A DNA stretch of 53,595 nt, the filler included, from Jimgerdemannia flammicorona (taxonomy: Eukaryota), in assembly GCA_003990765.1 (NCBI GenBank). It is 3 parts of 3 records of this genome, joined end to end, with 100 filler letters (N's around TTAATTAATTAA, not from the genome) between each part and the next. Parts side by side here need not be neighbours in the genome. Positions count along the whole stretch, not along the records: positions 35,798 to 53,595 come from RBNJ01002403.1; 2 more parts are not named here. One strand, given 5' to 3'. Positions 22,256-53,595 of this stretch are shown here, one piece after another. Under the pieces are notes generated by a model. That model was not told the origin of the DNA, made no database searches, and worked only from the letters and a program-made list of their open reading frames with translations. Position 1 is the stretch's first letter. Every line of letters starts with the position of its first letter. The translations under genes were made by a program, and so were the position numbers.

Positions 22256-23205
22256 TCAGTAGGGTCACTATTATCTCATCTCGAATTTTCCTTAATATCT
22301 TCTTACTGTGTAGGATTTCAGTCTAGTATCTCTCACTTAGAACTTAAAAGTCCTCTCTCTCCAGCTTCTCAGCTACTATGTTCTTAGTCATTTCTCCTCA
22401 TTCACAGCCTCTTCAACTCTCTGGGCCATTCTCTTTCTCCTCTCTACCTATCCTCTCTCAGCATTCCTTCTTACTGACTCATCTCAATTCTCCTTTAGTA
22501 TATCCTGCAGCTTTTTCTCATCAGTAACCCCATCTGGTACTATATACTGAGAGTGTTTTCTCTTGACCATCTCTGTATCCTTCATGACAATACTTAGTCT
22601 TGTATCACTCCCCTCTCTCTGGACCACTTCTAGAGCCACTTTCTTCTCCTCAGTCTAGGTACTTATTCTTAATCCAGTATCTTCAGCAACCATTCCCCCT
22701 ACTGCCCCCCCACTCAGCTTTACCAGTAGATCTTTCTGAATACACCTCTTCTGTGCTCTCTTCCAGACTGCTTAATCCAGCTATACCTTCTTGCTATTCA
22801 CAATCTCTACTACTATCTTGATCTCAAACTTCTTTCAGACTAGTCTCCTCCTCTCAATAGCTTTAGCCAAATCCTCTAATGCCTCCAGCAAGTTCTCTTC
22901 TTCCTCTTGCATTCTCTTCACTCTTGAAACTTTATACTTCACCAGTCTCTACTTAAGTACTACTGATCAGTTCTATACTCTCTCTATACTCTCTTTATCT
23001 ATTAGTCATATTCTAATATCTATATTATCTGTCCTGAACTCTGTATTTTCCCAGACCTGAAACCCAATATCTATAATATTTCTATACTCCTTGATGGTCT
23101 CTATAATCAGCTCTCTGGTCATCTTCTTCAATACTATAGAGATATCCATCACTGTCAACTATACTACTCAGGGGTCTCAGCATAGATACTTAGCCATAGA
23201 GATCA
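22256..23205 (-). mobile_element. Old LINE copy 3, fragment B (middle of ORF1)
   Basis: 'ELIIETIKEYRNIIDIGFQVWENTEFRTD' aligns with ORF1 of copies 2 and 5, and resumes where fragment A (28999-29765) stops. Confidence 0.8.
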
Positions 23206-23206
23206 C

Positions 23207-23237
<31 letters not shown>

Positions 23238-28998: not shown

Positions 28999-29765
28999 AT
29001 ACTATTGGGATCACTACTCTTTCCACTACCACCTTCTTTTCTATTATCTCTAATAATATATCCTTCTTCTCAAATCCAACCTCCACTCTTTCCAGATTCT
29101 TCAAGAACTTCACTGAGGCTGCACCCTTCACCTCCTAGATCAGAAGCTCCAGAATCATCCTTGTAGTTACTGTCAGTTCTCAGAAATATAGTATGATAGC
29201 AAATTCAGACCTTAATTTCTTGAGTAATAGTACTACTACCAGCTCTATTATACTGTCTGCCAGATCTGTGAGCCTTGTGTCCACCCTCTGTTTATATCTA
29301 CCATCAGCTATCATATCTGGATTTTTTTCCAGATTAGTAGTCTCTTTGCTATTAGCAGTCTCACTCTTCTTAGCTCCTACATCTTCCACTCTGCTGCTCT
29401 TGCCACCATAGACCACTTCACCAGATCTAGCAGCCCTTACCATCTTCTTGTTCTTTCTTAGATAGCTCTTCAGTCTGGTCACTAAATGACTCTCCTTCAC
29501 TCTATCTATAAAGTTTACTCTTATAGTCTTCTGATCTCCAGTACTGTCTTCTCTCCTTCTATATCCTCCAGTCAGCAAGCTCTACATACTTCTCCCCAAA
29601 CTATGACTCTTTCCTACATACTGTTAGTTGAATGTACTAGAGCTACCCTGCTCAGTATACATCTTGGAATACTTATTGGTTACTATGTTTTTAGTACCTT
29701 TTTTCCAAAAATAATATCTTGAGTGTTGCCAGAAGTTAGTATAATCTGAATATTATTAGAGAAAG
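28999..29765 (-). mobile_element. Old LINE copy 3, fragment A (5' UTR and ORF1 N-terminus), inserted into a Gypsy RT
   Basis: The 5' end matches 47742-47880. 'LLKKLRSEFAIILYF' and 'VKFLKNLERVEVGFE' are ORF1 motifs. Confidence 0.85.
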
Positions 29766-32700
29766 ATGTCTTTTGAGGGTCTATATTGATCTCTTTAGCA
29801 GAGATAATATATCCTAAATACTTGATCTGGTCTTGATAGAACTTATACTTACTCATCTTAGTATAGAGCTAGTGTTCTTACAGAAGAGTCAGTATCTATC
29901 TGAGGTGGGTATAGTATAGTTCTACTATTTTACTGTAGATTAGTATATCATTAATATATACAAGGATACAAATGTTGAGTAGTAATCCAAAGCTATCATT
30001 CATTAGATATTGAAATATTACTAGTATATTAGTTAAGTCAAAAGATATAACTTAGAACTGATAGTATCTAAACTATATTCAGAAAGCTGTCTTTTTAATA
30101 TCCTTCTCATCATTGAGGATCTGATAGTAATCATTTTACAAGTCTAGTAGGGAAAAGGTCTTAGTCTTGAAGATTTAGTGTAACAACTTATCAATTCTAG
30201 GTAAGACATACTGGTTCTTGATAGTGATCTTGTTGAGAGCTCTATAGTTAATATATATTTACAGAGAGCTATTCTTCTTCTTAATATATAGAATAGGAGC
30301 TCTAAATAAAGAATAGCTGAGTTTAATATATTCTTGAGTCAGTAGTTTGATCAACTCATCCTTGAGAGTCTTGAGTTCAGATTAGATCAGATAGTAGATA
30401 CTCTTATATAAGAGTTCAGATCCTGAGATAAGATCAATTCTATGTTAGATTTGGTACTTAAGTAGAAGTCTTTTGAGCTCCTAGAATATATCTTGAAATT
30501 TTTCAAATAGTTCTTGAGCTTCTAGTAATACTGGACTACTTGGGGCTTTAGGAACTTTTTATATAGTATAGATAAAGTATATGTTCTTCTTTTTGCAGAA
30601 GAGTCTTTTTATCTGAATTGTAGAGATAATCTTGATTTCTTAGTAGTTAGTATTTTTTTGAGATATCAGAGTGACTTTTCTACTTTCATGAGTCAGGTTA
30701 ACTTCATTGGTCCTCTAGTTGATATCTGGGTTATACTGGATCAACCAGACCTTTTCTAGAATAATATATATCTTATTTTGGAAGATCTATAATACTGAAG
30801 TTAAACTTTTCTTAGTATTTGCCAATCTTGAACAATAGGTCTTTACAGATTTTGATCAAAGACATAGTCTTACTATCACTAAAGATGATACTTCTTTTCT
30901 CAATAACTGGTCTACTTTAGGCTCCAATTCTCTTGATAGTCTTAGTGTTAATATAGTTTTCAGTAGCACTACTATCTAGTAAGATATTAACATCCTGTCT
31001 ATAAACTTGGTCTGTGAACTTGATACAACTATCCTCTTTCTTAATAATATTGAGTTCTTCATCATTATCATCTCAATTACTGTCAGTCTCCTTGAAGTCA
31101 GTCTCTCTCCATCCTTCACAAAAAGAGTAGTCTGGTTTGGATTCCTCAGTTTATTGGGCTTAGTATTTCTTAGATTGATTTTGAAAACCTTAGAGAGACA
31201 TATATTATATTTACTAATATATTCCATATAGTATATTTAGATAGAATGAGAGTATTGTCTATATAGTATATAACTATCTATAATTCTCTTGTACTAGTTT
31301 TTATCATCTTTCTTCATAGTGGCAACCTTTTGACTGAGGAGTTTATTGGTTGATCTAAACTCTTTCTTACTATAGTCTATCTGAGAGAGTTCAGAGACTT
31401 CTTTAATGATAAGATCTTAATGGATTTTTTCAATAATTGCTTAGATAATTCTTTAGCCTACTCTGACTTCAAATTAGGTATTTCTAAAATTTTATAAGAT
31501 AATATAGATTTTACTAATAAAATCTTAGTCAACTACTTCTCTTCTTAGCCTGATATTGAATTCTTTAGTCAAACTGCTTTATTTAGTAAGATGGATATAT
31601 ATTTCTTTAGGAACTTATATTACAATTTCAGTATATTGTAGCATTAGTGCTTGGTAGAAAGTGAGGTCCTGGCTACTATAGAGATCATATCCAGCATCAG
31701 TAGGATGGGTCTTAGTAGAGATAATAGCCTTATATCATGTTTTCTATACTTTGATAATATTCTCAGAATTCTTCTTTTCTAATCTTTCTCTGATGATAGT
31801 AATGTTCTAATTATTGAATTCATCTAATGAGTTTTAGTTTCTCTTTTCAGAATATCTAAAGGAGATATATTCTGTCTTCTTGCAAATAAAGTACAATATT
31901 TTTTTATAAAGCTATTTTAGTTTTTCTGGTCTCTTTGGTTATTCCTTCTAGGGGGACTCTTCTTGTCTTAGTTATCCTTCTTATATTTAGTATGTCAGAG
32001 GGTCTATATAGTAAGGATCTTATAAGCTCTTCTTTATACTTAAGCAAAGTACTATGAGTAGTATAGATATCCTTGAAAAAGATCTTATTCCTTAATCTTC
32101 TAAGTGAGTCAGTCTGGTAGGATAGCAAAGAAATAGTTAGTCTTAATACTATTGATGGCTAAATTATTTTCTTGATAGATAAGTTCTACAATTTGGAGAT
32201 AGGTATCTATTCTAATGATAAAGATTTCTAGATCCTCTTCACTATTTTTGTAAAAATTTATCTGAGTTAATTTGTTTCAAGTTTCTTATATATAGGCCAT
32301 ATTTCAGAATTTATTCAGTAGTAAGATCTTGAGTTCTGGACCTACTATATAGTTATTCCAACCTGATCTGTTTTGGCTAACTACCTATCTATTGACTTAA
32401 TGGCAGTCTTTTTAGATTACTGAGTATTCTTCTAGAGTATATCAGAACTTGGCTGCTATTCCAGTAAAGAATATTACTACTGTTTCTACTTATACTACTA
32501 ATGTGGCAAATAACTATTAAATAGTACTATTTCTATTATTGATGAATATTCCTATAAGTACTCAGTTATATATCATTCTATTAATTTGCTTAGTATTCTA
32601 TATCTACTGCATTGATGAAGGTTTTGATATTATGTTTTTTCTACTAAAAGTAGAAATTATCAAAGTCTTGATTAGTTTGTTCTGTTTAGTAATTTATTCT

Positions 32701-33890
32701 ATTATCTCTGCTAATATAGCTAGCTAAGCAGTTAGAGTCTGAATATTAGTATCTGTTATTATATTGGCTACTAGTAGTGAGTATATAGAGGTAGATTCTC
32801 CTAAAGACTATTTAGCCTACTGAGGTTATAGTGCTAAGTAACTTAGAGTTGCTTGATTTCTAAAGATTAGATCAAAGAGTCCTATAAGAGTAAGTAAACT
32901 AAATCTCTATATAGATATCTGAGTTGGTTCTGGGGTTTGATCTTCTTGACCTATAAGTCTTTAGTAAATTCCTAGATCTACTATTTCCTATTGGCTATTA
33001 TTAGATTAGTATCCTGTTAAGTCTTCATCTGACTTTCTTCTCTAATGAGATAGTACATTCTCGTACTGACTAGATTCTTTAAAGAAAATATCAGATTCTG
33101 GCTAGATAGATGAATCTGCTCTTTGATCAGAGTGATCTATCTGTTTATTCTTATATCTTAATATAGTAGTAGCATAGTATACAACTAGTCAGTAGTAGAA
33201 AAAGGTTCAGATAGGAGTGTATAGTATCTATTAGATGTAATTCATCAATAGCTACTGCTCTTGCTATAGAAGAAACTATTGAGATATAACTTAAAAATTC
33301 CTAGATAGTAGCTATTGTAGATTTCTGAGTCTTAGTAACCCCAACATAGTTATAGATAAGGATGTAGAATCTATAGTAGCTACTTACATTCCTAAGGCCT
33401 AGGTAATAGTTTCTAAAGGCCTTATATAGGTCTCTATATCAGAAGCTGATATAGCCTTGAGTCTGTATTTTTCTGATATTATCTAGTTTTAGTAGTAATT
33501 GTTAGATAGGCTCTGATTTATAAATTTGTTCCTTGGGAATCTATAGTTGATTCTAAAGTTACTCTTATCTAAGATTGGTCTTATTTCAACTTCTCAAAAG
33601 TATGTTCTTAATACTATTTTGGCTCAGTAATTTTATTGCTACTAAGTTGTAATAATCCTCTTTCTATCTCTCTCTTATTCTTGAATAATTAGGAAAACAA
33701 GGTATTACTTAAGGACTTAGTACACAAATATACTAAGAAGCCTTAGTATAAAGAAGCACTTACTTAAAGTAGTTATAGTGATAATATTTTTTTAATAACT
33801 ATAGTTATAAGAGACTTGTTCTTTGCTATATACAGACAAAATTTATCTTAGAATTCAGATTTAATAAGAGGGTTTTCTTAAGTCTTTAAG
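29766..33890 (-). mobile_element. Gypsy LTR retrotransposon: 5' LTR-PBS-gag(CCHC)-dUTPase-protease-RT, heavily mutated, cut by LINEs at both ends
   Basis: LTR end ...TATTACA at 33648, followed by a decayed PBS TAGTAGCA (TGGTAGCA). Knuckle 'LYFICKKTEYISFRY' ~31855-31900. Protease 'ILLDSSATENYI' ~30950-30985 and 'WLIQYNPDIN*R'. RT 'INYRALNKITIKNQYVLPRID', 'KTAF', 'VYINDILIYS', 'YLGYIIS'. Confidence 0.9.
31345..31765 (-). pseudogene. Trimeric dUTPase domain inside the Gypsy polyprotein, disrupted
   Basis: All five motifs are recognisable in order: 'AIISTKTHPTDAGYDLYS' (I, 31681-31695), '*SSLTK' (II, RSSLA), 'EVVD*DFISKI' (III, GVVD.D+.GEI), 'G*RII*AII' (IV, G.RIAQ), 'IDYSKKEFRSTN' (V, T.RG..GFGST). 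Confidence 0.9.
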
Positions 33891-33909
33891 ATATATATAT
33901 ATATATATA

Positions 33910-35688
33910 TTTTTCTTTTTTTTAAAGTCACTTGAACTCCACTATTTATTATCAATTTATTCATAATTATACATCATCTCCTCCCCCTATCTGATTCCCA
34001 TAGAGGAGCCTCTCTTTATATTATTGTAAATAAAGACTATCTTCTCACCCACTACCCCCATCCTCCCCTTACTCTGCTTACAGATCTTCTCTACTAAGTA
34101 GTACCTTTGACCACTCTGCAGCCCCCAACCAAGCCACTAGCCTGTCAAGGTGTCTTTTATAAGGCTCTGCTAATGCAACAACCAGTTCTCCAAGCCAAGT
34201 CTCCTTCTATCTTCAAAAACAAATAGCCAGTAACTAGCCAACCTCACTCAAATTACCAAAACCCAGCCTAAGATAAGCTACTCCTTTCCCACCCCCCCCC
34301 ACTAGTCTATTCCTCAGATCCTCCCACCAATTCTACATACCATCACTCTAATACACTATTCCCAAGTAATTCCCAATAGTCTGCCAGAAGTCACTAAGTA
34401 TCTCATACTCCCCTAGCCAATGTTCAGGTGTCTACACATATCTCTCTTCCTGCTCTACATTGTAGTACTCCTTGTAGTCAAAGCAATCCCTCTCAATAAG
34501 ATGATCTGAGCAGAAATTGAGCATCACATTCCTCCTCAGCATATACTATCAGACCACCCAGTACTTCAGCAGCATCCATCTCCTCACCTTAGCACTCCAG
34601 GCCTACATGCTATACTAGTTCCATTCTTCTCTAATGTTAACTCTCTGCTATCCACTAGGCCACAGATCCTAGCCTTGTCTCCTTTGGTAGTCTATCTCAT
34701 CACCAATGTTGAACTTGATTAAAAGAACATCTCTCAACAATACTCAGTCCCATCTCCACATCACTGAGTCCCAAGCTACCTCTCCTTTATTACCCTACCA
34801 ACAAATTCCAATGCAGTATGCTCCCTCTGCTACTCTCTACTAGAAGCCTTTATATTGCAATTGCATAGTTTTCTGAAGTCCCACCAATGAAAGGAGATTA
34901 TCTGTCAATCCTCTTGGTGAGGTTCTCATCTTCCAGACCTTCTGTAATAGAGGAACTCAACTGCCTCTTCTCAATTCCACTACTCTCTTCAACTATCATA
35001 CTCTCAAGCAGTATAGCTACTTCAGAAAGTCAACCAGCCCAAGTCCTCCTCTTGCTACTGGTAAAGATAAGACCTTCCAACTAATCTGATCCCTTCTTTC
35101 AGCCCAGATCCACTCTTTGGCCAGCTTCAACAATCGCTTCACTACTCAGACTGAAAAGTCCAGATGATAAGCCAGATACTATAACTTTGACAGCCAATAG
35201 ATATTCAAAATCGAGATATATCCCACTAGAGATAAATGGCAACCCCCCTAACTCTGTAGGGCCTCCCCCCAGATTCTAACCCTCTGCTCCCATCAAAGTC
35301 TAAACAGTACTGACCTATATACTGACAAATAAATACCCAAGTACCATACTACCTCATCAGTAGGAATAATTGTTCCAATGATGTCCCTATCCATCAGACC
35401 AGTGTCCAACACTATTGTTTCACACTTGTACCAATTGAGTTTGGTACCAGAGTTCTCCTCATACATACTACTCCACCATCTTCTTGAGCTCCTCAATATT
35501 AGTAACAAATCCCAGATCAACAATTATATTATCTGCAAAGGCCCCAACTTTCCACCCAATCTCAAAGACAGAGAGCTTCATTATCTTCTACCTGATTCTG
35601 TCCATTAGGGGCTCCAGAGAAAGGATATATAGAATGGGGGACAGTGGGTCCCCCTGGGGTACTCCCCTACTCAGGAAAAATGATACTT
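33910..35688 (-). mobile_element. L1/Tx1-clade LINE copy 4, 3' part up to the RT PQG motif; broken by the assembly gap
   Basis: T-rich tail next to a (TA)n tract within the Gypsy LTR. 'GVPQGDPLSPILY' at ~35630-35670. Collinear with the other copies. Confidence 0.9.
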
Positions 35689-39700: not shown

Positions 39701-40249
39701 TTATGATAGTTGATCTAAATTAGGAATATGAATTTGAAAAATAGATATTTGATTACAATATCTGAATATGAATCCCAAATATAGTATAGCCTTATAAATA
39801 ACAGTTATTTTACAAATATAGAAACTTTGATAAATGTTAAATTTTTTACAAATATTGATATTAAAGAATAATACTTATAAAAAGTAACTTACAGAAAATA
39901 TAGTTATAACTTAGTTACCTTATAGCTAGTAAACTTATATAAATATCTCCAGTATCTAGAGTGAATAAATCTCAGATCAAAATAGTTCAAAGCAAAGAGA
40001 AAGTAAGAGAACTAGTAAGCCTGTAGGCAGATATACTTTAAACTCACCCACTATATTCTAAGGACTTTATAGAGTTAAAGAAGATCAAGTTTTCAAGATA
40101 CAGAAATCTGATATACTTACCCAGTTATATATATATAACTGACAGAGTAGTGGGTGGTCATAGTAGCTCCCATAGGTACTTTGATAGTAATGAGTAATCC
40201 TTTGAAGATTTCTATAAGACTCATTAGATAGTCTTAATAGTTATCTCAG

Positions 40250-40700
40250 AGAGGGGTGGTATGAAAGTCTGGCAGAGTGGATTCAGTTTATAGTTTATTG
40301 ACTTCTTATAGTAATATAGTTGCTCCCAATATAATTAGTGACTTCAGCTTCTATCCAATTGATTTTTTTAGTAGTAAGATAGACTATATTTCTAATAGTA
40401 ACTTCTTATAAGTGAGCTATAGTCTAGGGTATATGACAGGAGATTTGGTGGACACAAAGGGCTCTCTTGATTGGCCAATTGGTAGTTAATAGTTCAGCAA
40501 TAAGATCTTCCTGATTATCTTCTTAGGTTTCATTATAAAGGTAGTATCTAATTTCATAGTCATACTAGAGAGTTATTTAGTAGTAGTGTTCTTGAGTTGC
40601 TGGGTCATTATATAGTGGTAGTTGATGAAATGTCCAAAGTCTTCAGTATAGAAGTTTAGATACTCAGTAGTATCAGAGTACCAGATAGCCATTTTGATGA
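40250..40700 (-). pseudogene. ORF3 homologue, fourth copy
   Basis: 'YLNFYTEDFGHFINYH...YDYEIRYYL...KRALCVHQISCHIP*TIAHL*EVTIRNI...INWIEAEV' aligns with 18504-19323. Confidence 0.7.
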
Positions 40701-41597
40701 CTTAGAGGATAAAACTCTTCAGACTTAATAAAGAAGTACTATAATGGGAAGTCTGGTTAGAGTGACAGAAAGGAGGAATTGTGTTCTTATTTGTTTTGAT
40801 TCTTCTTGATACACCAGATCTAGATTCTTTAAATAATATGGCTTTCATTTTAGCTCAGATTATTATTACTCCTTTTGGTCAGATAATCTGATAGATTAGA
40901 TGAGTTATCAGATAGTATTATCTGGTTATCATCTAATCAAGATGATTATAAGATCTGTTGTCATTACTTCCTTATTTCAGTATTGTTAGTTATACATATT
41001 ATACTATATTCTTCAATATAATAATATAAATATTTTATAAATATTTTACTAAATTATGAGATTATATTATAGAATATATAATATAAACATTACAAATATT
41101 TTACTGAATTATGAGATTACATCATCTGATATAGTATGTTATGAAATTTGAATCTATAGATTTGAATCTTGTAATATACTATATATATTCTCTGATATGA
41201 TGATATAAATAATATAGATATTTTACCAAATTACAAGATTATATCACCTAATAAGTAGAATATTTACCCCAATCTACCAGATCCTGTGTAATAGTATAGT
41301 CAGTACTAAAGTTACTTATGATAATTAATAGATATTCATATCTCTAACAACTAACTATGATGAGAAAAATTTTATATATAAATATATCATATATTAATAT
41401 TTATTTCATCAATATTTTCAGTATACATATAAAAACAATATCAGGAGAGTTTTAAAATATGAGGATATATTGTAAAATTATTTATTTATTATCACATATA
41501 TCTTATATTATCTGAATTATATTAAGTTTAAATTATATTTAAATTTGATCATATAATAATGTATATATATTTGGAAAAAAGAGAGCTATACTACAAT

Positions 41598-41940
41598 TAG
41601 TGCTCTGAATGAGCCAATTTGAATCAAATCCGGATTTGATTCATCACATGACAGTTCGATCCAAATCTCAAATCTGAAGCCATCCGAATCAACTTGGATT
41701 AATCTGAATTGCCCCATCCGAATTACCCCATCCAAATCACTCATCCAAACTACCCCAATCCAAATCACTCAATCTGAATCACTCAATCTAAATCACTCAA
41801 TCTGAATCACTCAATCCAAATCACTCAATCTGAATCCTCCAATTCGAATCCTCCAATTCGAATCTTTCAATTCGAATCCTCCAATCTGAATCCTCATCTG
41901 AATCCATCAACTGAATCCTCCAATCCAAATCCTCCACATG
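41598..41940 (+). repeat. hAT left TIR and subterminal (GAATC/AATCC)n repeats
   Basis: Begins TAGTGCTCTGAATGAGCCAAT, nearly identical to the MITE TIR at 2843. Followed by ~14-bp ATCTGAATCACTCA-type repeats. Confidence 0.88.
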
Positions 41941-42059
41941 ACTCATATGCCAGACATGTCCACAACATATTATACACACACACATATACAACACACACAT
42001 ACACACACACATGCACACACAAATATACAAACACATATATTGACAGATCAGTCTTCAAC

Positions 42060-44584
42060 AGTTCACAGTATTGATGATGCTTCAAGTCAAATATCCCTGA
42101 TAGTTCCACACCTTCCATGCAATCCTCACTCCAAAATCTGGCAACATTGTGCTAAGATAGAAGATGATATTGTTTGTAATTATTGCAGGTAAAAAATTAA
42201 GATACACCTATTGACTTGTTTGACACACACATGATATTGTTTCATCCACCCCCATAAACTGCATCAGCCAGAAGTTCAAAATGCTTAGTGGTACAACCTT
42301 GAACATGAATCGACACATAAAAGACAAGTACTCTGACAAAATCAAAAAGAACACAGAGACAAGTAAAATCGACATCCAAGCTGTGGTGGGTATGTTTATC
42401 CGATTGCCCAACCATTTCTATACTAACAACACCATTTAATCAAAAATATTTAGCCATACTCTTTGGCAGAATTTCAAAATTGGCTCATTTGCTAGATTGT
42501 GTATACAGACCAGCCATTCACAACCATCGAGAGTGATCAATTGCATAGTATCTTTGGTCTTCTCAAGTATGATTTATATTTGCCAAGTGCTGATACTATT
42601 CATAAAGATGTCCTGGAGGCCTATAGGAAGGAGCACAACAATCTCTGCCAGATACTTCAGGTAAAATAAGGACAGCACTATGACCTTTGCAAGCTGAATT
42701 ATATAAAAGAGCTCACCAATTTAACCTTATATTCAATAAGCAGAATTTGGCAGGCAAAATTTCGTTTACGATTGACACATGGACATCCCCCAATGCAATT
42801 TTGTTTCTGGGCATTACCAGTCATTAGATTGACCTCGATTGGCAGCTTAAATATCTCACCCTTGACTTTGTCAAACTTGCTGGCTCTCATTCTGGAGACA
42901 ATATCGCAGATACTTTTATTAGTTGTATCTGGGAGCTTGGGATCACAACCAAGGTAAAAAAAGGAGGGCTTACTATCAGATCAGCATTTTGAGAGAGGTC
43001 CTTAAACAGAACAGATTTTGTTGGTTATTTATTTTCACATAATTCACTAACCAAATATTTCAAGTACAGATTTTGGCCATTACAACGGACAATGCAACAA
43101 ACAACTCAACATTTTTCCAAGTTTTAGCAGCCAGCCTTAAATAGGAAAACATGGCCTTTGGTGCAGAAAGCTGCCATGTGTGATGTTAGGCCCATGTACT
43201 GAACCTTGCTATTTAGGACTATCTTATGCATGTAGACAAAACATCTGAGAGAGGAGGGGCCCTGAGTATAATTTCCAAGCTGCGCAAACTGGTTGTATCA
43301 GTCTGATCATCTCTACAATGATGAGACAAATTTGCTATGCAGTGTAGAACAATCAGTTTAGCCCTGAAAGAGCTTATATTGGACATCTGTACATGTTGAA
43401 ACTTAACATTTGCAATGATCCAGCATGCACTGGAGTTTGCTGTGATATATATTCTTTTTTTCTTCAGTCAGCTGCAGCAACTGTTTCGGATGATGGAAGA
43501 TTTATTTTAAAAAAAGCCAATAGATTCAATGATAGCTGCCAACAAAGAAATATAGGCCAAGGCTCTAGGTGAAAGTGAGTGGGACATACTTAGGAATGTT
43601 GTCAGAGTTTTGGAAGTAAGTAGTGGTTGCTCTGGCTCTACACTCATTTTATCTGCCTCTGCACAATGCAATACCTCACCACATATAACTGCCAGTGTTT
43701 TGACGATTGTATGAAGGATATAGTCAAACAAATGACCCCAACAATAAGCTCTGTGATACCAGTATACAACCTTCTGATTGACCAGCTAGAGGACAAGCTC
43801 AAGGATAGGCTGGAGGATTGTGGTGATTTACAGTTAAGCCTAGATCAGAGAGACACCATAGAGGTTACTCTAAGCAAGCTCAGGAAATACTACTCCCAAA
43901 CAGATACCACCGTATACTCAATCAGTACAGGTATGTCAATGTCGGCATGTGGCCATTGCCCCTTCCAAAACAGAGGAAACCCCACAAAAACTCACTCTCC
44001 TTTTCTTCAAACAGTGCTGGACCCATGCTTAAAGCTACAATACAAAAAGATTAGGGCTGGGAGTAGCACTTCATTGAGAGAACCAAGCAGGCTGTAATTG
44101 AAGTATGTATACTGGAAAAACTTCGCACTGCCGCAAGGTTCCAGCTGAAGTCCAGACGAATATGCCAAGAGTTTCCTCCTGTCCTACATTTATTTCAGCA
44201 GAAAGAGGAAGAGGGAGCCATCAGTGAAAGAGCTGCCGTCAATAGACGAACTCACTATTTACCTCACCAGCGACCACATAATCCTACTGGAGGGCATGGA
44301 GGTGCTCAACTGGTGGAAGGTGAGTTATTAGGTAGGTATTGTCAGGTGAGTGTTGGGCCAATTTAACCTACCAATCTAACCACTGCTCTACCCACTAGGG
44401 CATACAGCTGTGTCAAACAGACTTCCCTAGCCTGTGTGGTATGGCTCAGGACTACCTGGCAGTTCCTGCCTCCAGCGCTCCTGTCGAGTGGGTGTTCTCA
44501 GGTGGGGTAGACCTCGTTGCCCCAAAGAGGTGTATGCTGAATACTGAGACAATCCGGACATATATGTGTCTGAAGTCTTGGTGA
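42060..44584 (+). pseudogene. hAT DNA transposase (BED zinc finger, DDE core, hATC dimerisation domain), multi-intron, disrupted
   Basis: BED 'SKIWQH...VCNYC|...GTTLNMNRHI'. Core 'DQPFTTIES', 'ISFTIDTWTSPN', 'HSGDNIA', 'ITTDNATNN', 'C*AHVLNL', 'VLDPCLK'. hATC 'LNWWK|...MAQDYLAVPASSAPVEWVFS...MCLKSW*'. GT-AG introns with donors near 42189, 42661, 42953, 43931 and 44320. Confidence 0.93.
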
Positions 44585-44744
44585 GGCTTGGGCCGCTAAA
44601 ATTCAGTAGGTCCACAGATAAGTTGGTTGGCCTTGTGGAATATTTAATATCTTTCAAATTAATACCTTTCAAAATAATAAAAGGAAAAAAAAACCTGAGG
44701 ACTTGGCTCAGAGTTTGTGGCCCAAGTGGGGCAGGGTTGGCGGT

Positions 44745-45200
44745 GGCAGCAGAGGGAGCATGCAATATTTGCAGCCCTCAGCCAGCAGCAAGGAGCAGCC
44801 TCAAGCTGCCAGTATCCAGGTCAGTGAGTGGGTCAATGGGTCAGCAGAGGAAGCATGCAAAATTTGCAGCCCTCCACCAGCAGCAAGGGGCAGCCCCAAG
44901 CTGCAAGTATCTGGGTCAGGGGGGTAGGCGGAGGGAGCATGCAAAATTTGTAGCCCTCTACCAGCAGTGAGGAGCAGCTCCAAGCTGTCAGTGCCCAGGT
45001 CAGTGAGTGGGGTCAGTTGGCAGGTTGGTGGGTGTGGAGTCGGCAGAGGGAGCATGCAAAATTTGCAGTCCTCCACCAGCAGCAAGGGGCAGCCCCAAGC
45101 CACAAGTATCTGGGATGGACAGGGCAGACAGAGGGAGTGTGCAAAATTTGCAGCCCTCCACCAGCGATATAGGGGCAGCCTCAAGCTGCTAAGGAGTCTA
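44745..45200. repeat. Five GC-rich tandem units (84-116 bp) with core GAGGGAGCATGCAAAATTTGCAGCCCTCCACCAGCAG
   Basis: Cores at ~44752, 44847, 44931, 45047 and 45131. Long and short units alternate. The core is an imperfect palindrome (GAGGG..TGCAAAATTTGCA..CCCTC). Confidence 0.9.
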
Positions 45201-45389
45201 GGGCAGAGGGTACTTCTGGTGGTCAGAGGGCATTTCTGGCAGTTAAAGTTGCCGGTTCGGGTCCCACGGGTACCCCAGCCCTGTGCCGCAGCGCTGCACT
45301 GGTGGTACTACAGAGCAGGGCCGAGGGGCTGGTAGAGCCCTGCATAATGGCTAAGCTAGTGCTATATAAGAGGCATCCGGCCCATATAA

Positions 45390-45478
45390 GACTGCCCAAC
45401 CTACACAAAATGGCTGCCTAACCTGTACAAAATGACTGCCTAACCCTTACAAAAGATTGCCTAACCCTCACAAAAACT
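45390..45478. repeat. Four ~22-bp repeats (CTGCCTAACC...CAAAA) abutting the stop codon of the dioxygenase-like gene
   Basis: Read directly from the sequence. Confidence 0.8.
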
Positions 45479-47325
45479 GCTCCACCTGCCAGTCCCAGGC
45501 CTTGATGAGCCTATCATCCATTGTGAGTACGATGACTGTTGTGTCTGAGCTCTCCTCGAAGGTAATAGTGCCATAGTGGTCATGTGGTTAGAATAGGACA
45601 GCCATGTTGGCCGCAAACAGGACCCCAAAACCATAGGTGAGGTCATACTAGACTCTACTGCTATCCTTCCAGATTGGGCCCTTCCTTTCCAGGATGTAAA
45701 ACATTACTGGGGTAACATTGTTGTCTGTGTGTGTGGGCAGAGAAAGATTGTACCCGATGTATCCTGATGTGATGTGAGCATATGGTTGGGTGAACCCTTG
45801 GCCCAGGACCTCATACTGCTAGGCTGTGCTGGTGGATGCCTGCCCCTGGTCCAGCCCCGAGAGCCCTGGCTTAGAAACCTGCTGAAACAGATAGCAACTG
45901 GTCAGTCCTTTTTATGTGCAGGGGGGCAGAAACCCCCTGGGCTGCAGCACTCTGAAAAAGCAGAGCTCCTTACCTCATATGGTATGCTAAATTGCACCAA
46001 GAATGTACATACAGCCATGCCGAGATCACTACTAAGCTGGCCTGCCATATGCTCTACCAATCTGCTCAAAGAACCCCAGATCATAGCCACCATCGCTGCA
46101 CAGGCCGTGTTGTGCTCACGCACAGTTTGCTCTTCAATGGCACTTCTAAAGTTCCAGTAGGGGTACAGAATCTTGTGCATCCCTGGAATTGTATCAAAAA
46201 GAGTATGTCAGCGAAGAGTGTGATTTATCTAGAGAGGGGTTAAAAAAAAAGGGAGACGAGTGCAGGGGATTTCGGAACTCCGGAACCCACTCTTCACTAG
46301 TGTTGCAGTATACCCTTGCTTTTTTCGCCCCCTCTTTCCTGCTACCTGGTATTTGATGCAATCCTCGCAAATCTCATTGATGTGGTAGCAAAGCTCATCA
46401 CTATAGAGGTTTCTTACCATCATCGTAACCATCTCTCTACATTCGTTAATAAAGATATGGTTCTCTTTGTCATTGGTTACTCCTGCTGGCCAATGGACCC
46501 CTTGGTCAAGTATGATTGGCTCTGATTCGAATGTAGACCCCCAAGCCTTGATGATGATGCTAGTACTGCTCATGCTGAACATCTTGCCTTTGAATTTCTC
46601 TATTTGATCAGACACCAGATGTGGTTGAACTTGGGTAACTTTGAACTCTCCTTTCCAATGGAACTGAGCCCTGATCTGAGGGACTGAGATAAGTATGTGG
46701 ACAGGTTGCATGCAGACAGGTTGCATGTAGGTGGGTTGTGTGCAGGCGGGTTGCATGTGGGCAGGTTGCATGTGGGCAGGTTGCGGGTGGGTTGCATGTG
46801 GGTGGGTTGCATGTAGGCGGATTGTGTGTGGGTAGGTTGTATGTGGGCAGGTTGCATGCAGGCGGGTTGCATGTGGGCAGGTTGCATGTGGGTGGGTTGT
46901 GTGTGGGTGGGTTGTGTGTGGGTGTGGGTGTTTTTTAGAGGGAGACCACATAAAAATGAAATTAAATAAAACATGGAGATGGGTATTTCAGAAAAAGAGC
47001 ATGAGTGAGTGAGTGAGTGAGCTGCATGCTGATGAGTTGCACACTGATGAGTTGTATGCCAACAAGTTACACAAGTTGCATAAGATTGCTCACGAAGGCT
47101 TGCTTCTGTTCCTTTTGAGACCTCTGCCATGTGATACATTGACTCAACAGCTCAGCCACCAAAGGCATGCCCTGTAACATCCACCAGCCTTTCTTCATCT
47201 TGACCAGATATTGCAAATAAAGTCAGCAGATCTTGCTGTAGAGCTGTGGACCCTAAGAAAAGCATGAGGTGAATTGGATCATGCTGGAGAAGTTTAAATA
47301 TATGCTCCTTTCTCTGCTACCTTAC
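45468..47325 (-). pseudogene. Spliced gene for a putative TET/JBP-like 2OG-Fe(II) dioxygenase; decayed, upstream part probably cut by LINE copy 5
   Basis: Inferred phase-0 exons 47252-47094, 46675-46346, 46228-45974 and 45881-45468. The last exon reads 'PYAHITSGYIGYNLSLPTHTDNNVTPVMFYIL...DSSRV*YDLTYGFGVLFAANMAVLF*PHDHYGTIT...TVIVLT', with HxD at 45723-45731 and distal H(Y)GT at 45567-45578. 'GKMFSM' lies in the 46675-46346 exon. Confidence 0.68.
46700..46930. repeat. 15-bp minisatellite (GGTTGCATGTGGGCA)n inside an intron
   Basis: About 15 degenerate units between the inferred acceptor at 46676 and donor at 47093. Confidence 0.9.
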
Positions 47326-47820
47326 TGGTCACAAGGTTTGGTAGGTGACCTTCCAAGTCCCCTTTCCCCTATTATTACCCCCTCTACCTCGGGTTGGTTT
47401 GCTGTGCCTGCAGGAGCATGGTGGGAGGAAGGCAATGGTGATGAGTTGCCCCTTTATCGGTGTCAGATCGGTACTTCCTCCACTTTTTCGTGGATTCTGG
47501 TACCTTCAGCTACATCTGGGGTATACCCATTTTGGTGTGGCACCTTCTTCCTTTTGCTGTTGCCAACAAGGAGTTGTCTTGGTGTGTCTTAGACTATGTA
47601 GGGAGTCGGCCGACCTTGGGCATCAAGTGCTTAGTGTAGGTTACCTGCAGGTCCTCAGTGCCTATGGTGGGGCCCTCTGGCTTTGGCGAGCTTCCCGACA
47701 AGTATGGTTCTGGCGTAGGTGACTGCTTCGGATGACACGACCTTTCTCTGATAACATTCAGGTTACACAACCCTTTGGCAACACTTTCGACACAGTTTCT
47801 GGAGAAAAGCTACTAGTATC

Positions 47821-49842
47821 ATAGTGACCAATGAGTATCTGGAGGTACGTACTGAGCAGGGTGGCCCTGGAGCATTTGAATGGCAGCAAGTGGAGAGAGG
47901 CCCTGGCTTGGGGGGAAGTATAAGGGGCCTGCTGGCAGGGGGCTGCAGTGGAGGGAGGGGCAGAGCTGGAGGTCAAGGGTCTGGCAGGGTGAGCTTTGCA
48001 GAGAAGGTGAAGGGGGGTCGGCAGGGAGCTGGACTGGAGAGCTGGTTGAGAGGGGGGAAGGTACCAGTGGCAGCTTCCAGGCAGCAACCTCTTGGGGGTA
48101 CCTCTCTAGCAGGCCATAGGAGTGGAGCTGGGGGGGTAGCGGCTGGGGCGGGGACTGCTGATGGGGGTGTAATGGGTGATCTGGAAAAAAATCTAGATGG
48201 GACTACTGATGGTGAGCTGAGCAGTGGGAAGGGCACGAGGCCCGGAGACCTGGTGGATGGTATAACAGGACTGGTGGTGGCTCCGTTACTCAAGAAGTCG
48301 ATCTCGGCATTCGCAGTCACACTGTGCTTCCAGAACTTAGTGGTGATGGCAAAAATGGTGTTGGGGCTTATCGCTAAGCAGGTGGTGGGAGCAGCTTCAG
48401 TGAAGTTTCTGAAGGGACTGGAGGGGGTGGAGATGGGATTTGAGGAGGTTGAACTGCTGGAGGAGGTGCTGAAGGTTGGGTTGGTGGTTGGGGAGGTGTG
48501 TATTCCGATAGTGAGATGTCTGAAATGGGATCCAAGGGTGGTCCAACTGCTGGTGAAGGGAGTACCCATGGTGATGATGATGGAGACAAGGAAGAGAGTG
48601 GAGGATGTCATGGCGGAGTACAGAGAGGTGGTGGATATCAGATTCAGGGTCTGGGAAGGGACCATGCTCAGGACTGGGGATGTGGATGTGAGGATTCGGC
48701 TAGCTGGGAAAGAGGCTACTAGGAAGATGAGGGACTGGCCTTCGGTGTTGGTCTGGGGAGCTTTCCTGTGCAAGGTGACGTAGGTGAAAGGAAGTGAAGA
48801 AGAGGAGAAAGATTTATTGGAAGTGCTGGAGGAGCTGGATGGGGCTGTAGAACAGTGAGCTAAGGCCTGGAAGGCTTTCAAGGAGTCAATGCTCCTGGAG
48901 GTAGTAGATGGAAAGAGGATTTGAGTGGACAAGGTGCAGTGGGAAAGGGCTCAGGGGCGGAAGAGGCAGAAGGATCTGCTGGCTAAGCTGGGGGGTAGAC
49001 ATGCAAGCATGAAGATGGGTGCAGAAGGGGCCGGAGCGAGTGTCTGGGCTGGTGAGAGGAGTGGGAATGATGGGGCAAAGTCAGGGAAGGCTAAGGAGGT
49101 GAAGATTAGTGACCTATATGCTGATGGCACCTTGGAGGTTTGGGATGAAGTCTGGGAGAATTCCCCCACCCCTTCCTCTCTTATTAGGCATGGCCTGGCT
49201 TCCAGAAACAAGTCTGGGGAGGACGTGATGATGCTGGGGACCCAGCAGGTGAAATTCAGTATTCCAGAGGTATTGGATGGGGACCGAATAGTGGCAGCAG
49301 GGGAGGAGGAACTGGTGGATGTCCCGGAGGTATGGGATGAGGATGCAAGTGCAGGAGCTGACACCACGATGCTGGATGGAGGGAGGCCGGCAACCCCTGG
49401 TGGAAAGGAGGTGGGGAACCTACTTTGGATGTGCCAGATGATGAATAACCTGGCGGCAGAAGAGCTGGGGGAGGTGGACTTGCGTGGGATGAGTGACGAG
49501 CACTGGATAAGAATTTTGCAGGGGAAAGGAGTGGTGATGGCGCTGAAGGTGGAAATTATCGCAGTGTATCTGGAGGAGGAAGGGTATGAGATGGATAAGA
49601 AGAGGGAGGCGGAGTTGGCAGTGGTCACTGGGGAGAAGGCTGAGTACTGTTGGAACAGGCATCATGGGTTGCAGCTTTGGCAGGAGGCTTGTATCGAGTA
49701 CCGAGAGGAGTTTGAGGAGAAGGCTGATGAGGAGATGAATGAGCTGTTGGCTGAACTGGAGGCTCAGAGGGCTGAAGAGGAGGAGGTGATGGCTGAACAT
49801 AATCTGGACATGGTGCAGGAGGAGAGGGGCATGGAGCAGTAG
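47821..49842 (+). pseudogene. LINE ORF1 (about 670 codons: Gly-rich N-terminus, RRM-like middle, acidic helical C-terminus), three in-frame stops
   Basis: ORFs 47824-48783 and 48925-49842 share one frame. RRM-like 'VEMGFEEVELL...VKGVP...YREVVDI...RTGDVDV' is conserved across copies. No CCHC knuckle seen. Confidence 0.85.
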
Positions 49843-49872
49843 GGATTGATTGGGAATAAACCATATTTTACT

Positions 49873-52800
49873 ATGAATAGTACAACCAACATTTTTTCTT
49901 TGAACGTGAATAGGCTAAGGGGTGCGGTTTGATGCAGGAATATTTTTATTTTGTTGAAGGGATTGGAGGCCAATCTCTTCCTCTTGCAGGATATCAGGTG
50001 TGAGGATGATGCTGATAGGATGGAATGGACTAGGAAATGGAGTGGTATGGCAACTTGGAACAGCAAGGTTGGGATTCTGGTTCAGAAAGGCAGAGGGGAG
50101 ATAAAGGATGTGAGGAGCTGGGGGGAGAGACTGGTCTGGGGTGAGTGGATTTGTACAGGTTGGGAGCCGGTCACCGTTGGCTCCTGTTACTGCCCTGCTG
50201 TGCAGAGAGAGCATGTGGATTGGGTGAAAGGGCTCCTGGAGAGTAGGATCCTTGCTGAAGCTGGGTTGGATATGCTTGGAGGAGATTTCAATATAGTTCG
50301 GGATGTATGGCTGGATAGAACTGATGGAGGATGGGGTGCAGAGAGCAGGAGTGGGGGGTTGGCAACATGGGAGGAGGTTGAATGGCTAGGAGCACTGGTG
50401 GATGCTGGTAGGGAGCACTGGGGGGACAGAAGGGTGTATACACATTGGGCTGGAGGTCTGGGGACAAGGATTGACTGGATTCTGACAGCCGACTGTTGGG
50501 GCTGCAATGTTTGGAAGATGTTAGAGGTAGAATGGTGTCCATGGTCAGATCACTGGGGCCTCTTGGGACAGGGGTGTTTTGGGAGAAGTAGGGATGGGCC
50601 TGGATATTGGCACCTAAATTCCTCCTTGTTGGATGATGAGGCCTGGTGAGAGGTATGGGCGAAAGACATTCAGCTGAAGGTGGTAAATTGGTGGCAGGAA
50701 GGGGCCGCGATTGGGGTTCAGTGGATGAGGATGAAAGAGATGGCCAGGATATATTGGAGCGAGGCTGGCAGAGTGGCTGGGAAGCAGCGAAGGCAGAAAG
50801 TGCATTGGGCTTCTACTAGATTGGCTAGGCTCCTGGAGGAGTGGGCGAGACTGGCAGCAGTGGAGGGAAAAGAGGATTGGAGAATGATGAGGGTGAAGAT
50901 GGAGGTTGGGGAACTGCAACAGGTGCTGCGGGAAGAGGAAGAGTCAAGGGTACAAGGCCTGGTGGCACAGCTTCATTGGCAGGGGCTGGAGAAAGGGGAG
51001 AGGCCTTCCAAGTTTCTCACAAGGACACTTCAAGCGAGAAGGGTATAGCAGCGGTGGGAAAGGGTACTTGGCTTGGATGATGTACTAGTGCATGGTGTAC
51101 AGGACATCCTTGGAACACTGAAGGCGCGATGGAGTGGATTGTGGAGTGAGGAGGAGGGTGGGGCGGATGCTACAGCCATTGACCAAATGTTAGAGGATTG
51201 GCACCCACCACAAGCTGAGAGACTAGGTGAACTGGTGATACCTGTAAGGGAGGAAGAGATCCACCAGATTCTTGCCGCGACAGCCTCAGGTACAGTGCCT
51301 GGGAAGAATGACCTCCCTTGGGACTTCTGGAAGCGAATGGTTGGAGTCCCAGGCATATTGGGGGAGTTGACAGCACTGTGTGACTTTATATTGCAGTCAG
51401 GGAGATGGGTGGGGGAGCAAGACCTTGGGCTGGTGACGCTGCTTTATAAGAACAAGGGAAGGCGAGAGGATTGGAAGAACTGGTGGCTGATAATGTTGCT
51501 AGATATGGACAGGAAGTTGGTGACTAAGGTGGTGGTTGTAAGGCTATAGAAGGTAGCCCAGCAAATTGTGGGTGTTGAGCAGAGGGGCTTCATAGGAGGT
51601 CAGCTTATTAGAGATGGTACAGCCTGAGTACATGGAGTTATTGAAGGTGCTCGAGCCTGTGGACTAGATGGGCATCTTGTCTTCTTGGATCAGGAGAAGG
51701 CTTATGACCAGGTACAGTGAGTCTGGCTGGTGAAAGTATTAGATAGAATTGGAGTTCCGGGCCCATTTTGGTCAGCAATGGTCAGCTTACTGGAAAGGAG
51801 TAGGGCTGTGCTCATGTGCAATGGGCATCGAGGGGTGGCTTTCTCTCTGGGTAGGGGAGTGCCCCAGGGGGACCCACTGTCCCCCATTTTGTATGCTCTT
51901 TCCTTGGAACCTCTGATGGATAGGATTCGGTGGAAGATCATGGGGCTCTCTATCTATGACATTGGCTGGAAGGTTGGGGCCTTTGCAGACAACATGGTGG
52001 TTGGTTTGGGAGTGACTGCAGACGTCAAGGAGCTCCAGAAGACAGTGGAGTGGTATGAGGAGAACTCTGGGGTGAAGCTGAATTGGCACAAGTGTGAAAC
52101 AATGGTGCTGGGCAATGGCTTGGTGGGCGGAGAAGTTATTGGAACAATTGTCCCCACCGGAGAGGCAGTATGGTACTTGGGCATCTATTTGTCGATCTAT
52201 GGGTCTGTTTTGCCCAGGCTGTGGTGGGAGCAGAGGATTGGAATTTGGGAGGAGGACCTGCAGGGTTGGGGGGGTCAACACTTCTCTCTGGCAGGAAGGA
52301 TCTCGATTTTGAATGTATACTGGTTGCCGAAGCTATGGTATTTGGTCTATCATCTGGACTTCCCAGCCTGGGTAGTGAAGAGATTGGTGAAGGTGGCCAA
52401 GGAATGGATGTGGGCTGGTGGACGGAGTCAGATTGGTTGGGAGACTTTGTCCCTACTGGTGGTGAGAGGTGGTCTTGGGCTAGTGGACTTCCCCAAACGA
52501 CTACACTGCTTGAGGGCTTGGTGGCTGAGGAGGGTGGTGGAGTTGCATGGAGGGGGCTGGGTCCCCTGCTGCAGAAGATATAGGAGAGGCAGACATCACC
52601 TAGAGGCTTGACTGGTGATCTTCTTTCATTGGTTGGGCTTCAGAACACTGCACAACTGAGATATAAAGGCTTCTGGTGGGAGATAGCCAAGGGGGCACAC
52701 CACATTGGTATTCGCTGGCAAGGGGATGAGGGGGAGAGGGCTTGGGACCTGGCGATGTGGAGATGGGATAGCATTCTTCTGGGAGGCATGCCTTTACTGG

Positions 52801-53528
52801 AGTTCAACATTAGTGATGGCATTGAATGTCAAAGGGGTCCAGGCCAGGATCTGTGGCCTAGTGGTTGGCAAGGAGTTGGAATTGGTGAGGAGTGGGACTG
52901 GCATGGGGTTTGGACCTGGAGTGCTGCGGTGAAGAATTAGATGCCGCCGAAGTACTGGGTAGTCTGGTGGCATATACTGAGGAGGAATGTGATGCTTAAC
53001 TTCCACTCAGGGCACCTTGTTGTAAGGGGCTGCTTTGACTGCAAGGAGTGCCATAATGTCGGACAGGAAGGGGGACTGGTACAGATGCCGGAACATTGGC
53101 TAGAGGAGTGTGAAGTGTTGGGAGACTTTTGGCAGACCATTGGGGACCACTTGGGAGTAAGGTGTAGGGGTGATGATGTATGGGGGAGGTGGGAGGACCT
53201 GAGGGATCGATTGATAGGAGGGGTTGGGAAAGAGTAGATTACTCTAGGCTGGGCATTGGCTATTTGGGTTGGGCTGGCTGGCCACTGACTATTTATATTT
53301 GAGGAGGAGAAGCAACTGAACTTGGGGAGCCAGTTAGCGAGGTGGCAGTTCCTTATGGAGGATACCTTAACAGGCTGGTGGCTTGGTTGGAGGCTACAGG
53401 GAGGTCGGAGACACCACTTGGTGGTAAAAATCTGTGGTCAGAGTGGTGGGAGAGTTGGAGTTGTTGGTGAGAGGGTGGTCTTTATAGGTGATGAGGTGGG
53501 GTGGGGCCACCCAATGGGGATTGGATAG
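49873..53528 (+). pseudogene. LINE ORF2 (APE-RT-Cys/His), disrupted by stops and a frameshift near 52600
   Basis: 'MNSTTNIFSLNVN', 'GGDFN', 'RIDWIL', 'WSDH', 'DQEKAYD', 'GVPQGDPLSPILY', 'GAFADNM', 'YLGI', 'CFDCKEC...PEHWLEEC'. Confidence 0.95.
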
Positions 53529-53595
53529 TGGGTGGTAATATTGTATACTTATTTATAGACTGGTAATAAAGACGGAGTCCAAGGGACTATAAAAA

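Follow-up and report, generated by a model that had tools for sequence, protein, structure and literature searches.

Complete DNA transposons that carry a TET gene have been reported from 11 transposon lineages, hAT included (Kojima 2025, PMC12730594; what is said here of that paper refers to the part of it on which we drew). Three types of TET/JBP-like protein, termed PU, AG and PE, are described there. Fungal TET/JBP-like genes are overwhelmingly transposon-borne, and the transposon-borne fungal TETs of these types stand without experimental validation (PMC12730594). The hAT carriers, named 'hAT7', are 20 Puccinia families with 7-bp target-site duplications (TSDs), CAACGGTGGG termini and a PU-type TET (PMC12730594). 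The PE type comes from Pezizomycetes and three Agaricales species (Agaricus, Laccaria and Gymnopus), and the carriers named for its genes in that part of the paper are Helitron, Plavaka, EnSpm, IS3EU and Zisupton only, not hAT. Here we describe a decayed locus of Jimgerdemannia flammicorona (assembly GCA_003990765.1) in a stretch of 53,595 nucleotides, filler included, which is joined from three parts of the assembly and is called the window below. A hAT transposase and a minus-strand pseudogene, very probably of a TET-like dioxygenase, lie tail-to-tail in it with their stop codons 883 bp apart, much as in the preliminary description of this DNA, which had placed the gene's end about 880 bp from the hAT stop codon. 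We favour a reading of the whole locus as a dead, transposon-borne TET/JBP-like gene for a 2-oxoglutarate- and Fe(II)-dependent (2OG-Fe(II)) dioxygenase, the cargo of a hAT element that begins at position 41598, and hold its prospects to be evenly balanced.

The pseudogene is spliced and spans 45468-46705. It had been described as a minus-strand gene containing NLSLPTHTDNN...DSSRV*YD...DHYGT, and a check of the codons bore this out: the frame from 45899 reads ...NLSLPTHTDNN...DSSRV*YD...LF*PHDHYGT.... The His and Asp of the HTD motif are encoded at 45729-45731 and 45723-45725. Three in-frame stops interrupt the frame (TAG 45819-45821, TAG 45648-45650 and TAA 45588-45590), Tyr (TAT, 45573-45575) occupies the position of a distal His, and the frame terminates at TGA 45468-45470. 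All these features, together with a conserved Arg at 45510-45512, belong to the last exon (45468-45881).

A word-index search with the last exon found a relative, P0016, which is an intact 136-aa open reading frame (ORF) on an 823-bp ENA contig (E 4e-61). The two aligned without gaps in BLASTP, 98 of 132 residues being identical (74%, E 1e-74). At least one intact relative of the gene therefore exists. Where the window reads TAG, TAG and TAA, P0016 encodes Trp, Trp and Gln; it has Gly-Gly in place of the window's Ser-Arg, and His in place of its Tyr. It follows that the reversions proposed for the decayed motifs were of the right kind and all but correctly placed. Restoring DSSRV*YD to DGGRVWYD correctly supplied the Gly pair and the Trp, although the pair falls on S-R, one residue later than the S-S supposed, and the Tyr of DHYGT does stand where P0016 has His.

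Comparison with P0016 also indicated how the copy was lost. The two differ at 37 residues. One C>T or G>A substitution on the window side accounts for 21 of them and the opposite substitution for 7, leaving 9 outside both patterns; all three in-frame stops are among the 21. By dinucleotide, these 21 inferred changes comprise 9 at CpG, 9 at CpA and 3 at CpC. Judged from this alignment, G:C-to-A:T transitions inactivated the window copy through the three stops, the change of GG to SR and the replacement of the distal His by Tyr. The copy is dead and has no function itself. Hypermutation at TCG, in the style of Pucciniomycotina, was considered and dropped, as the 21 changes fall at ACG (6), CCA (5), GCA (3), CCG (3) and other contexts (4), with none at TCG.

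The enzyme identity of the minus-strand feature was assessed chiefly on P0016. This protein has the facial triad of 2OG-Fe(II) enzymes, an HxD/E motif followed by a His some 50-60 residues further on, in the form of H48, D50 and H100, and the window copy retains the His and Asp. An Arg lies 21 residues after the distal His in both proteins and is, from its position, a candidate binder of the 2-oxoglutarate C5-carboxylate. We also searched the Atlas, which compares protein-language-model features and predicted structures and whose scores are leads, taken here as moderate support. The clusters nearest to P0016 by features were of basidiomycete hypothetical proteins (0.95 and 0.93), followed by a 'Tet-like 2OG-Fe(II) oxygenase' cluster (0.91, 178 shared features) in which 72% of members carry PF20515. 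The ten best family-bearing matches all fell within one family or clan. The Atlas structure search with the P0016 model (predicted TM-score 0.59) gave ten rows with TM 0.54-0.63 by query. Six were in clusters where 2OG-Fe(II) oxygenase Pfam families are common, 2OG-FeII_Oxy_3 and 2OG-FeII_Oxy_5 among them, one was a cluster with Tet_JBP on 28% of its members, one was a prolyl 4-hydroxylase and two were unnamed. Every structure row that carries a family is thus a 2OG-Fe(II) oxygenase, and clusters of Tet_JBP (PF12851) and 2OG-FeII_Oxy_6 (PF20515) are among the nearest neighbours of P0016 in both features and predicted structure.

Amongst the published types, the window protein most resembles PE. 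Compared by eye with rows of Table S1 of PMC12730594, the window protein and P0016 follow the same order of blocks as the PE type along the whole domain, some 280 residues. Blocks in common include E-x-x-I-F-x-[DN] and M-V-x-x-x-[VI]-R-N, S-[AG]-x-[SR]-[RS]-S, and S-G-[FY]-[MI]-[AG]-Y-N-[YL]-S before the metal-binding His. The series G-G-x-[FW]-[FY]...[HY]-G-[IF]-R-V...A-N-T...P-x-D-x-H-[AG]-T is shared as well, and one ungapped run from the Gly pair to the distal H-x-T is identical to the Plavaka-11_AB row at 14 of 31 residues. The final D-D-R-L lines up with the '[ST]-x-R-[LV]' of the PE type, so placing the C-terminal Arg on an R-[LV] that is conserved in 6 of the 9 PE rows compared. Like the PE type, the window protein is invisible to Pfam, and its gene is multicopy. 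Because these matches were made by eye and not computed, we describe the protein as apparently PE-like in layout and do not assign it to the PE type as represented in those rows.

Several results weigh against the enzyme assignment. The comparison with the PE type was made by eye, and the PE type is itself only remotely TET-like (HHpred E 1.4 to CMD1; PMC12730594). Its hallmark is HxE, found in 9 of the 9 PE rows compared, whereas the window protein and P0016 have HTD. The preliminary description had suggested profile searches and folding as checks of the enzyme call, and the profile searches did not favour it: HMMER found no match to TET/JBP or 2OG-Fe(II) oxygenase families. Neither Tet_JBP nor 2OG-FeII_Oxy_6 of Pfam matched any exon, P0016 or P0002 (a second relative, described below), and in hmmscan both went unreported for these sequences even at E up to 10, so that no family model reached its gathering cut-off. 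Searched exon by exon, with X at stops included, Pfam gave chance or low-complexity rows only (Peptidase_S11 at E 0.061, keratin/extensin). Amongst PDB chains, phmmer and hmmsearch found no TET, NgTET, CcTET, CMD1 or AlkB-type match; the PDB searches returned either nothing or coatomer WD40 rows taken as chance (E 0.047 and 0.089 at best), and similarity to TET was not detected in this way. On the double-stranded beta-helix, the fold of the 2OG-Fe(II) superfamily, folding gave a divided answer. The Atlas model reached the 2OG-Fe(II) clusters at the TM values given above, but AlphaFold models were poor, with a mean predicted local distance difference test (pLDDT) score of 36.1 from the two-sequence alignment and 46.7 from P0016 alone, and a Foldseek search of the latter model against the PDB returned 0 rows at E<=0.001 and 279 at E<=10. 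Its top rows (BsmI, an antibody scaffold) were unrelated and were rejected as meaningless for a model of this quality.

The lack of a family profile match, of a match to a solved structure and of a usable AlphaFold model would also suit a protein of some other fold in which HxD...H arose by chance. We consider that explanation highly improbable. The His, Asp, Gly pair, distal His and C-terminal Arg are all retained in P0016, the Atlas matches that bear a family share one family or clan, those of the structure search being 2OG-Fe(II) oxygenases throughout, and the protein is collinear by eye with the PE type over about 280 residues. The original call of a 2OG-Fe(II), TET-related enzyme hence stands on the triad of P0016, its Atlas neighbours and the PE collinearity, though not on any profile or solved-structure match. 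In our judgement the minus-strand feature is, with good confidence, a TET-like dioxygenase pseudogene.

The gene was modelled as three coding blocks joined by two GT..AG introns, which yields 356 codons interrupted solely at residues 240, 297 and 317; the three stops all lie in the last exon. Intron 2 (45882-45973, 92 nt, GTAAGG...TTTCAG, phase 0) joins two open frames in phase. The middle exon (45974-46182) matches by eye the PE-type block 'N-[AT]-[AS]-C-A' of the rows compared. Upstream of it, ORFs 46232-46705 and 45902-46207 share one frame with two stops between them, and both stops are removed by a putative intron 1 (46183-46257, 75 nt, GTCTCC...TTCCAG), whose donor is poor. The first coding block in the window (46258-46705) is open, with 46705 as its provisional 5' limit. 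An alternative intron at 46184-46345, with a donor-like GT just 3' of 46346, was rejected: the stretch 3' of 46346 is coding, since P0002 aligns across it and a PE-type block is seen there by eye. The preliminary description had spoken of four exons and gave no coordinates for them. We found support for three coding blocks and two introns, none for further exons between 46706 and 47741, and nothing that ties 46706-47741 to the gene. A self-BLAST of the window detected no further copy of the gene.

P0002 (128 aa) was found by phmmer with the 120-aa block 46346-46705 amongst 1.84 billion representative proteins, and aligns across the first coding block with 31% identity (E 2.7e-9). This search gave 15 proteins at E<=0.001. 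The other 14 were long proteins of bacterial type with 2-8 weak stretches each and were rejected as repeat noise; all six that were checked against Pfam are NHL-repeat proteins, and eight were left unchecked. The string G-V-H-W-P-A-G-V-T-N-D... in 46346-46705 weakly mimics an NHL repeat and is a trap for annotation through summed weak stretches. An Atlas search with the same block gave low recognition and arthropod allergen clusters, and was rejected. PHROGs returned nothing relevant for P0016, P0002 or the first coding block. P0016 and P0002 were the only relatives found among about 1.8 and 5.8 billion clustered proteins, and both are on short contigs. A word-index search aimed at longer proteins related to the first coding block yielded 72 candidates and one with the last-exon alignment 3274, none of which scored. 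Metagenome contigs were scanned twice by pattern, and none of the 92 matches of one scan or the 358 of the other was confirmed.

Immediately upstream of the first coding block, and overlapping its outer edge, Tandem Repeats Finder (TRF) placed an array of 15.5 copies of a 15-nt unit (46695-46922). It reads as an open, low-complexity frame rich in His, Pro and Thr, and draws false keratin/extensin matches.

Copies of the locus were sought in three soil metagenome runs (X1, X2 and X3), from which contigs of about 150-363 nt were aligned to the window at >=80% likeness. On 41454-47800, 2416 contigs of X1 and 39 of X2 aligned, together covering the spacer as well as the hAT and the TET-like part; depth in such runs does not equate to copy number. 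No contig of X3 aligned there. The hAT and TET-like parts therefore occur together in two of the three runs. By likeness to the window, the X1 contigs divide into 271 at >=99%, 618 at 95-99%, 1048 at 90-95% and 479 below 90%. Transitions make up 539 of the 566 places at which X1 contigs differ from the window (95%), and likewise on the flanking hAT. Since diverged X1 and X2 contigs lie on both parts, the TET-like gene and the hAT each belong to a multicopy, decaying family, and it is highly likely that the TET-like gene, being multicopy, is mobile. The region had been called C-to-T-scarred, in agreement with this excess of transitions, with the 21 of 37 residue differences from P0016 and with an observed/expected CpG ratio of 0.19-0.26 across 42050-47741.

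These data also bear on whether the feature could instead be a decayed host gene, or a duplicated fragment of one, stranded between transposons and not mobile cargo. That protein collections of very large size yielded just two relatives, each on a short contig, would fit a lineage-restricted gene. Against this, X1 holds thousands of diverged contigs whose differences are transitions to the same 95% as on the flanking hAT, CpG is depleted to the same extent as in the transposons alongside, and fungal TET/JBP-like genes are overwhelmingly transposon-borne in the survey cited at the outset. A host origin thus seems very unlikely.

The neighbouring hAT element begins at 41598. Its left terminal inverted repeat (TIR), TAGTGCTCTGAATGAGCC, occupies 41598-41615 on the plus strand; the TIR sequence TAGTGCTCTGAATG starts directly after ACTACAAT (41590-41597), a candidate 8-bp TSD of which the window holds no right-hand copy. 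The alignment of one X2 contig begins exactly at 41598 and continues to the right, the 93 bases that precede it in the contig being unrelated, and no soil contig aligned to 41000-41453. The left end at 41598 is thus confirmed and well supported. It is followed by a subterminal array of a 14-nt repeat of AATC[CA]..AATC type that runs for about 230 bp (41702-41934, plus strand, TRF), the motif having 12 copies within 41501-42000.

The transposase itself is a decayed, intron-containing pseudogene on the plus strand (41938-44584, start approximate), ending in TGA 44582-44584. The preliminary call of a hAT transposase held: Dimer_Tnp_hAT (PF05699), the C-terminal dimerisation domain of hAT transposases, matched the last exon at 44399-44584 with E 2.6e-11 and 43.6 bits, above the cut-off of 21.4. 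The blocks 'TIDTWTS' and 'TTDNATNN' were recognised by eye, and a BED finger is hinted at by a weak zf-BED match at 42082-42192 (E 0.029, below the cut-off). In-frame stops number one in one exon and eight in another. The 3' end of the transposase is complete, and no hAT end follows it.

A second member of the family defines what a complete end should look like. At 2843-3389 lies a palindromic miniature inverted-repeat transposable element (MITE) of 547 bp, with a matching TIR pair and a perfect 8-bp TSD, TTCAGAAC. Over 407 bp its arms show 82.6% complementarity, and both ends have the TIR and GATTC-type subterminal repeats. A complete unit of the family would be bounded by TAGTGCTC...GAGCACTA and 8-bp TSDs. 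The short TIRs and 8-bp TSD of a hAT are thus seen in full on the MITE, and on the autonomous copy at its left end alone. Downstream of that left end, no inverted TIR was found when up to 3 mismatches in 14 were allowed over the whole window. This search gave 5 matches in the window where 7.3 are expected by chance, and the sole match after 41611 has 3 mismatches and falls within the transposase coding region. The subterminal motif does not occur in inverse orientation anywhere from 42000 to the end of the window. As the MITE has both features at both ends and neither is found inverted downstream, the right end of the hAT is not in the window. The earlier statement that no right TIR separates the gene from the hAT stop codon proved correct and can be extended to the whole window downstream.

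The association of a hAT transposase with a TET/JBP-like gene in a fungal genome with C-to-T decay recalls hAT7 of Puccinia. Such cargo had been presented in the preliminary description as not typical of hAT elements, a premise now out of date because Kojima 2025 reports the hAT7 carriers and lists hAT among the 11 lineages (PMC12730594). As far as hAT7 is described there, the resemblance does not extend to detail. hAT7 has a 7-bp TSD and starts with CAACGGTGGG, whereas the MITE of the present family has an 8-bp TSD and a TIR that starts with TAGTGCTC. The G-G-x-M-W-x-I-G-W-R-K block of the PU-type TET of hAT7 is absent from the window protein. In the hAT7 families with a described gene order, the TET gene precedes the transposase and runs in the same direction, whilst here the TET-like gene is downstream and convergent. 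With TSD length, terminus and PU block all different, the locus is not a member of hAT7.

Genes of the AG type offer a second comparison. Iyer et al. reportedly described, in 2014, TET/JBP genes of this type associated with Kyakuja-Dileera-Zisupton transposons in Agaricomycetes, CcTET included. They resemble the present case in that a transposon carries a 5-methylcytosine oxidase, proposed as a means to escape methylation silencing, and in that HxD is retained. Their carriers are Kyakuja or Zisupton, unlike the hAT neighbour found here. The AG-type rows compared show the block N-R-x-[ST]-P-x-H-R-D, and their layout is different and does not line up with the window protein (PMC12730594, in the part used).

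The 883-bp spacer between the two stop codons (44585-45467) contains two tandem arrays and no hAT end. One array, with a 95-bp unit, lies at 44745-45011 and is extended by self-match to about 45210; the other, four copies of a 22-bp unit at 45390-45475, overlaps the stop codon of the TET-like gene. The spacer showed no recognisable transposon end, whatever the type, and a search for inverted repeats in 41000-48200 returned AT-rich or microsatellite pairs only. The complete 3' end of the transposase and the absence of a hAT end from 42 kb to the end of the window count for the TET-like gene as cargo of the hAT. We lean, narrowly, towards carriage by the hAT whose left end is at 41598.

Other observations make this conclusion less secure. 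The hAT right end was not seen anywhere in the window, and no metagenome contig bridges 44585-45468, as expected of contigs of this length. Decay has gone further in the hAT part than in the TET-like part, with 9 stops in 201 codons (two exons) against 3 in 356, and the GC content of the hAT part is 0.41 against 0.48. The published TET-bearing hATs, in the part of the survey used, are unlike this locus in the length of the TSD, the termini, the type of TET and the order of the genes, and hAT is not among the carriers it reports for PE-type genes (PMC12730594).

The same differences in decay and GC content, together with the list of PE-type carriers given above, would fit a TET-like gene on a separate TET-carrying element, one that either abuts a hAT cut short just past the transposase stop codon or sits nested within the 3' subterminal region of the hAT. 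Nested insertions are abundant here (three copies of a long interspersed nuclear element (LINE), and the MITE). We regard this arrangement as possible, if on the doubtful side. The spacer shows no terminus of such an element, and truncation would have to fall within the few hundred bases that separate the transposase stop from the right end now lost. Of 22 ORFs of >=130 aa in 1-41000, the 13 searched gave no further DNA transposase, and none was recognised in 41-53.6 kb. In addition, X1 and X2 hold both the hAT and TET-like parts and X3 neither.

On the favoured reading of hAT carriage, the TET-like gene would be internal cargo, downstream of the transposase and convergent with it, and the hAT right end would lie beyond the LINE that interrupts the region, outside the window. 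The gene would belong to a rare lineage, nearest to the PE-type proteins of fungal DNA transposons as far as these are described, which has kept the classical HxD. By analogy with known 2OG-Fe(II) enzymes, Fe(II) in an intact copy would be bound by the HTD His and Asp together with the distal His, and 2-oxoglutarate by the C-terminal Arg. Such an enzyme may oxidise 5-methylcytosine on the element's own DNA, and this oxidation may relieve both methylation-based silencing and C-to-T decay by deamination. More specifically, and with slightly less than even confidence, we suggest that a canonical hAT family with 8-bp TSDs, unrelated to hAT7 of the rusts, captured an unsampled PE-like clade with HxD, and that intact copies are active in an unsequenced soil fungus.

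The surrounding DNA is eukaryotic and consists nearly entirely of transposons, with blocks of about 50% GC amid AT-rich DNA of 26-32% GC. One LINE family has three copies (Pfam RVT_1 E 3.5e-18, 1.4e-14 and 2.1e-12), at 5000-9500, 23000-29765 (minus strand) and 47742-53595 (plus strand). The last is an insertion upstream of the TET-like gene that extends past the window end (RVT_1 E 2.1e-12, Exo_endo_phos E 5.4e-4), and its first part, 47742-47942, matches 29765-29565 in a self-match of the window. All three copies have extreme strand asymmetry, with |GC skew| of about 0.33-0.57 and a coding strand rich in G and poor in C. Between this LINE and the gene, 47301-47741 is a segment probably outside the gene, with a plus strand rich in T (AT skew about -0.36). 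X1 contigs on it have about 10 times the word depth of those on its neighbours, three X1 contigs diverge with a loose end at 47300, and its 125-aa plus-strand ORF has no Pfam match. In X1 it behaves like a separate, far commoner repeat, of which it may be a fragment. A fragment of a Copia-type Pol beta-barrel (Pol_BBD, E 5e-8) lies on the minus strand at 276-689, in the AT-rich left end of the window.

CpG is strongly depleted throughout the window, with observed/expected ratios of 0.12-0.26 in transposons and 0.00-0.01 in two AT-rich blocks, 30000-34000 and 40000-41597. The 30-34 kb block has indices like those of repeat-induced point mutation (TpA/ApT 1.23, (CpA+TpG)/(ApC+GpT) 0.88). The younger transposons of the window instead show CpG loss with an excess of TpG/CpA.

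For a counter-defence by mobile elements against cytosine methylation and C-to-T hypermutation in fungi, the clearest candidates are TET-like enzymes borne by transposons. The general principle of TET-carrying transposons in fungi was already published in December 2025 (PMC12730594), and the locus described here is a divergent new example of it, set against the part of that survey on which we drew. It adds a divergent TET-like lineage that standard profiles miss, and an intact relative of the window gene could be cloned and tested. If the link to the hAT is true, it would provide a further lineage of TET carriers. Should an independent hAT family have captured this clade, the pairing would be the twelfth between a transposon and a TET, and the clade would bridge the PE type, with its HxE, and the classical HxD enzymes of the TET/JBP family.

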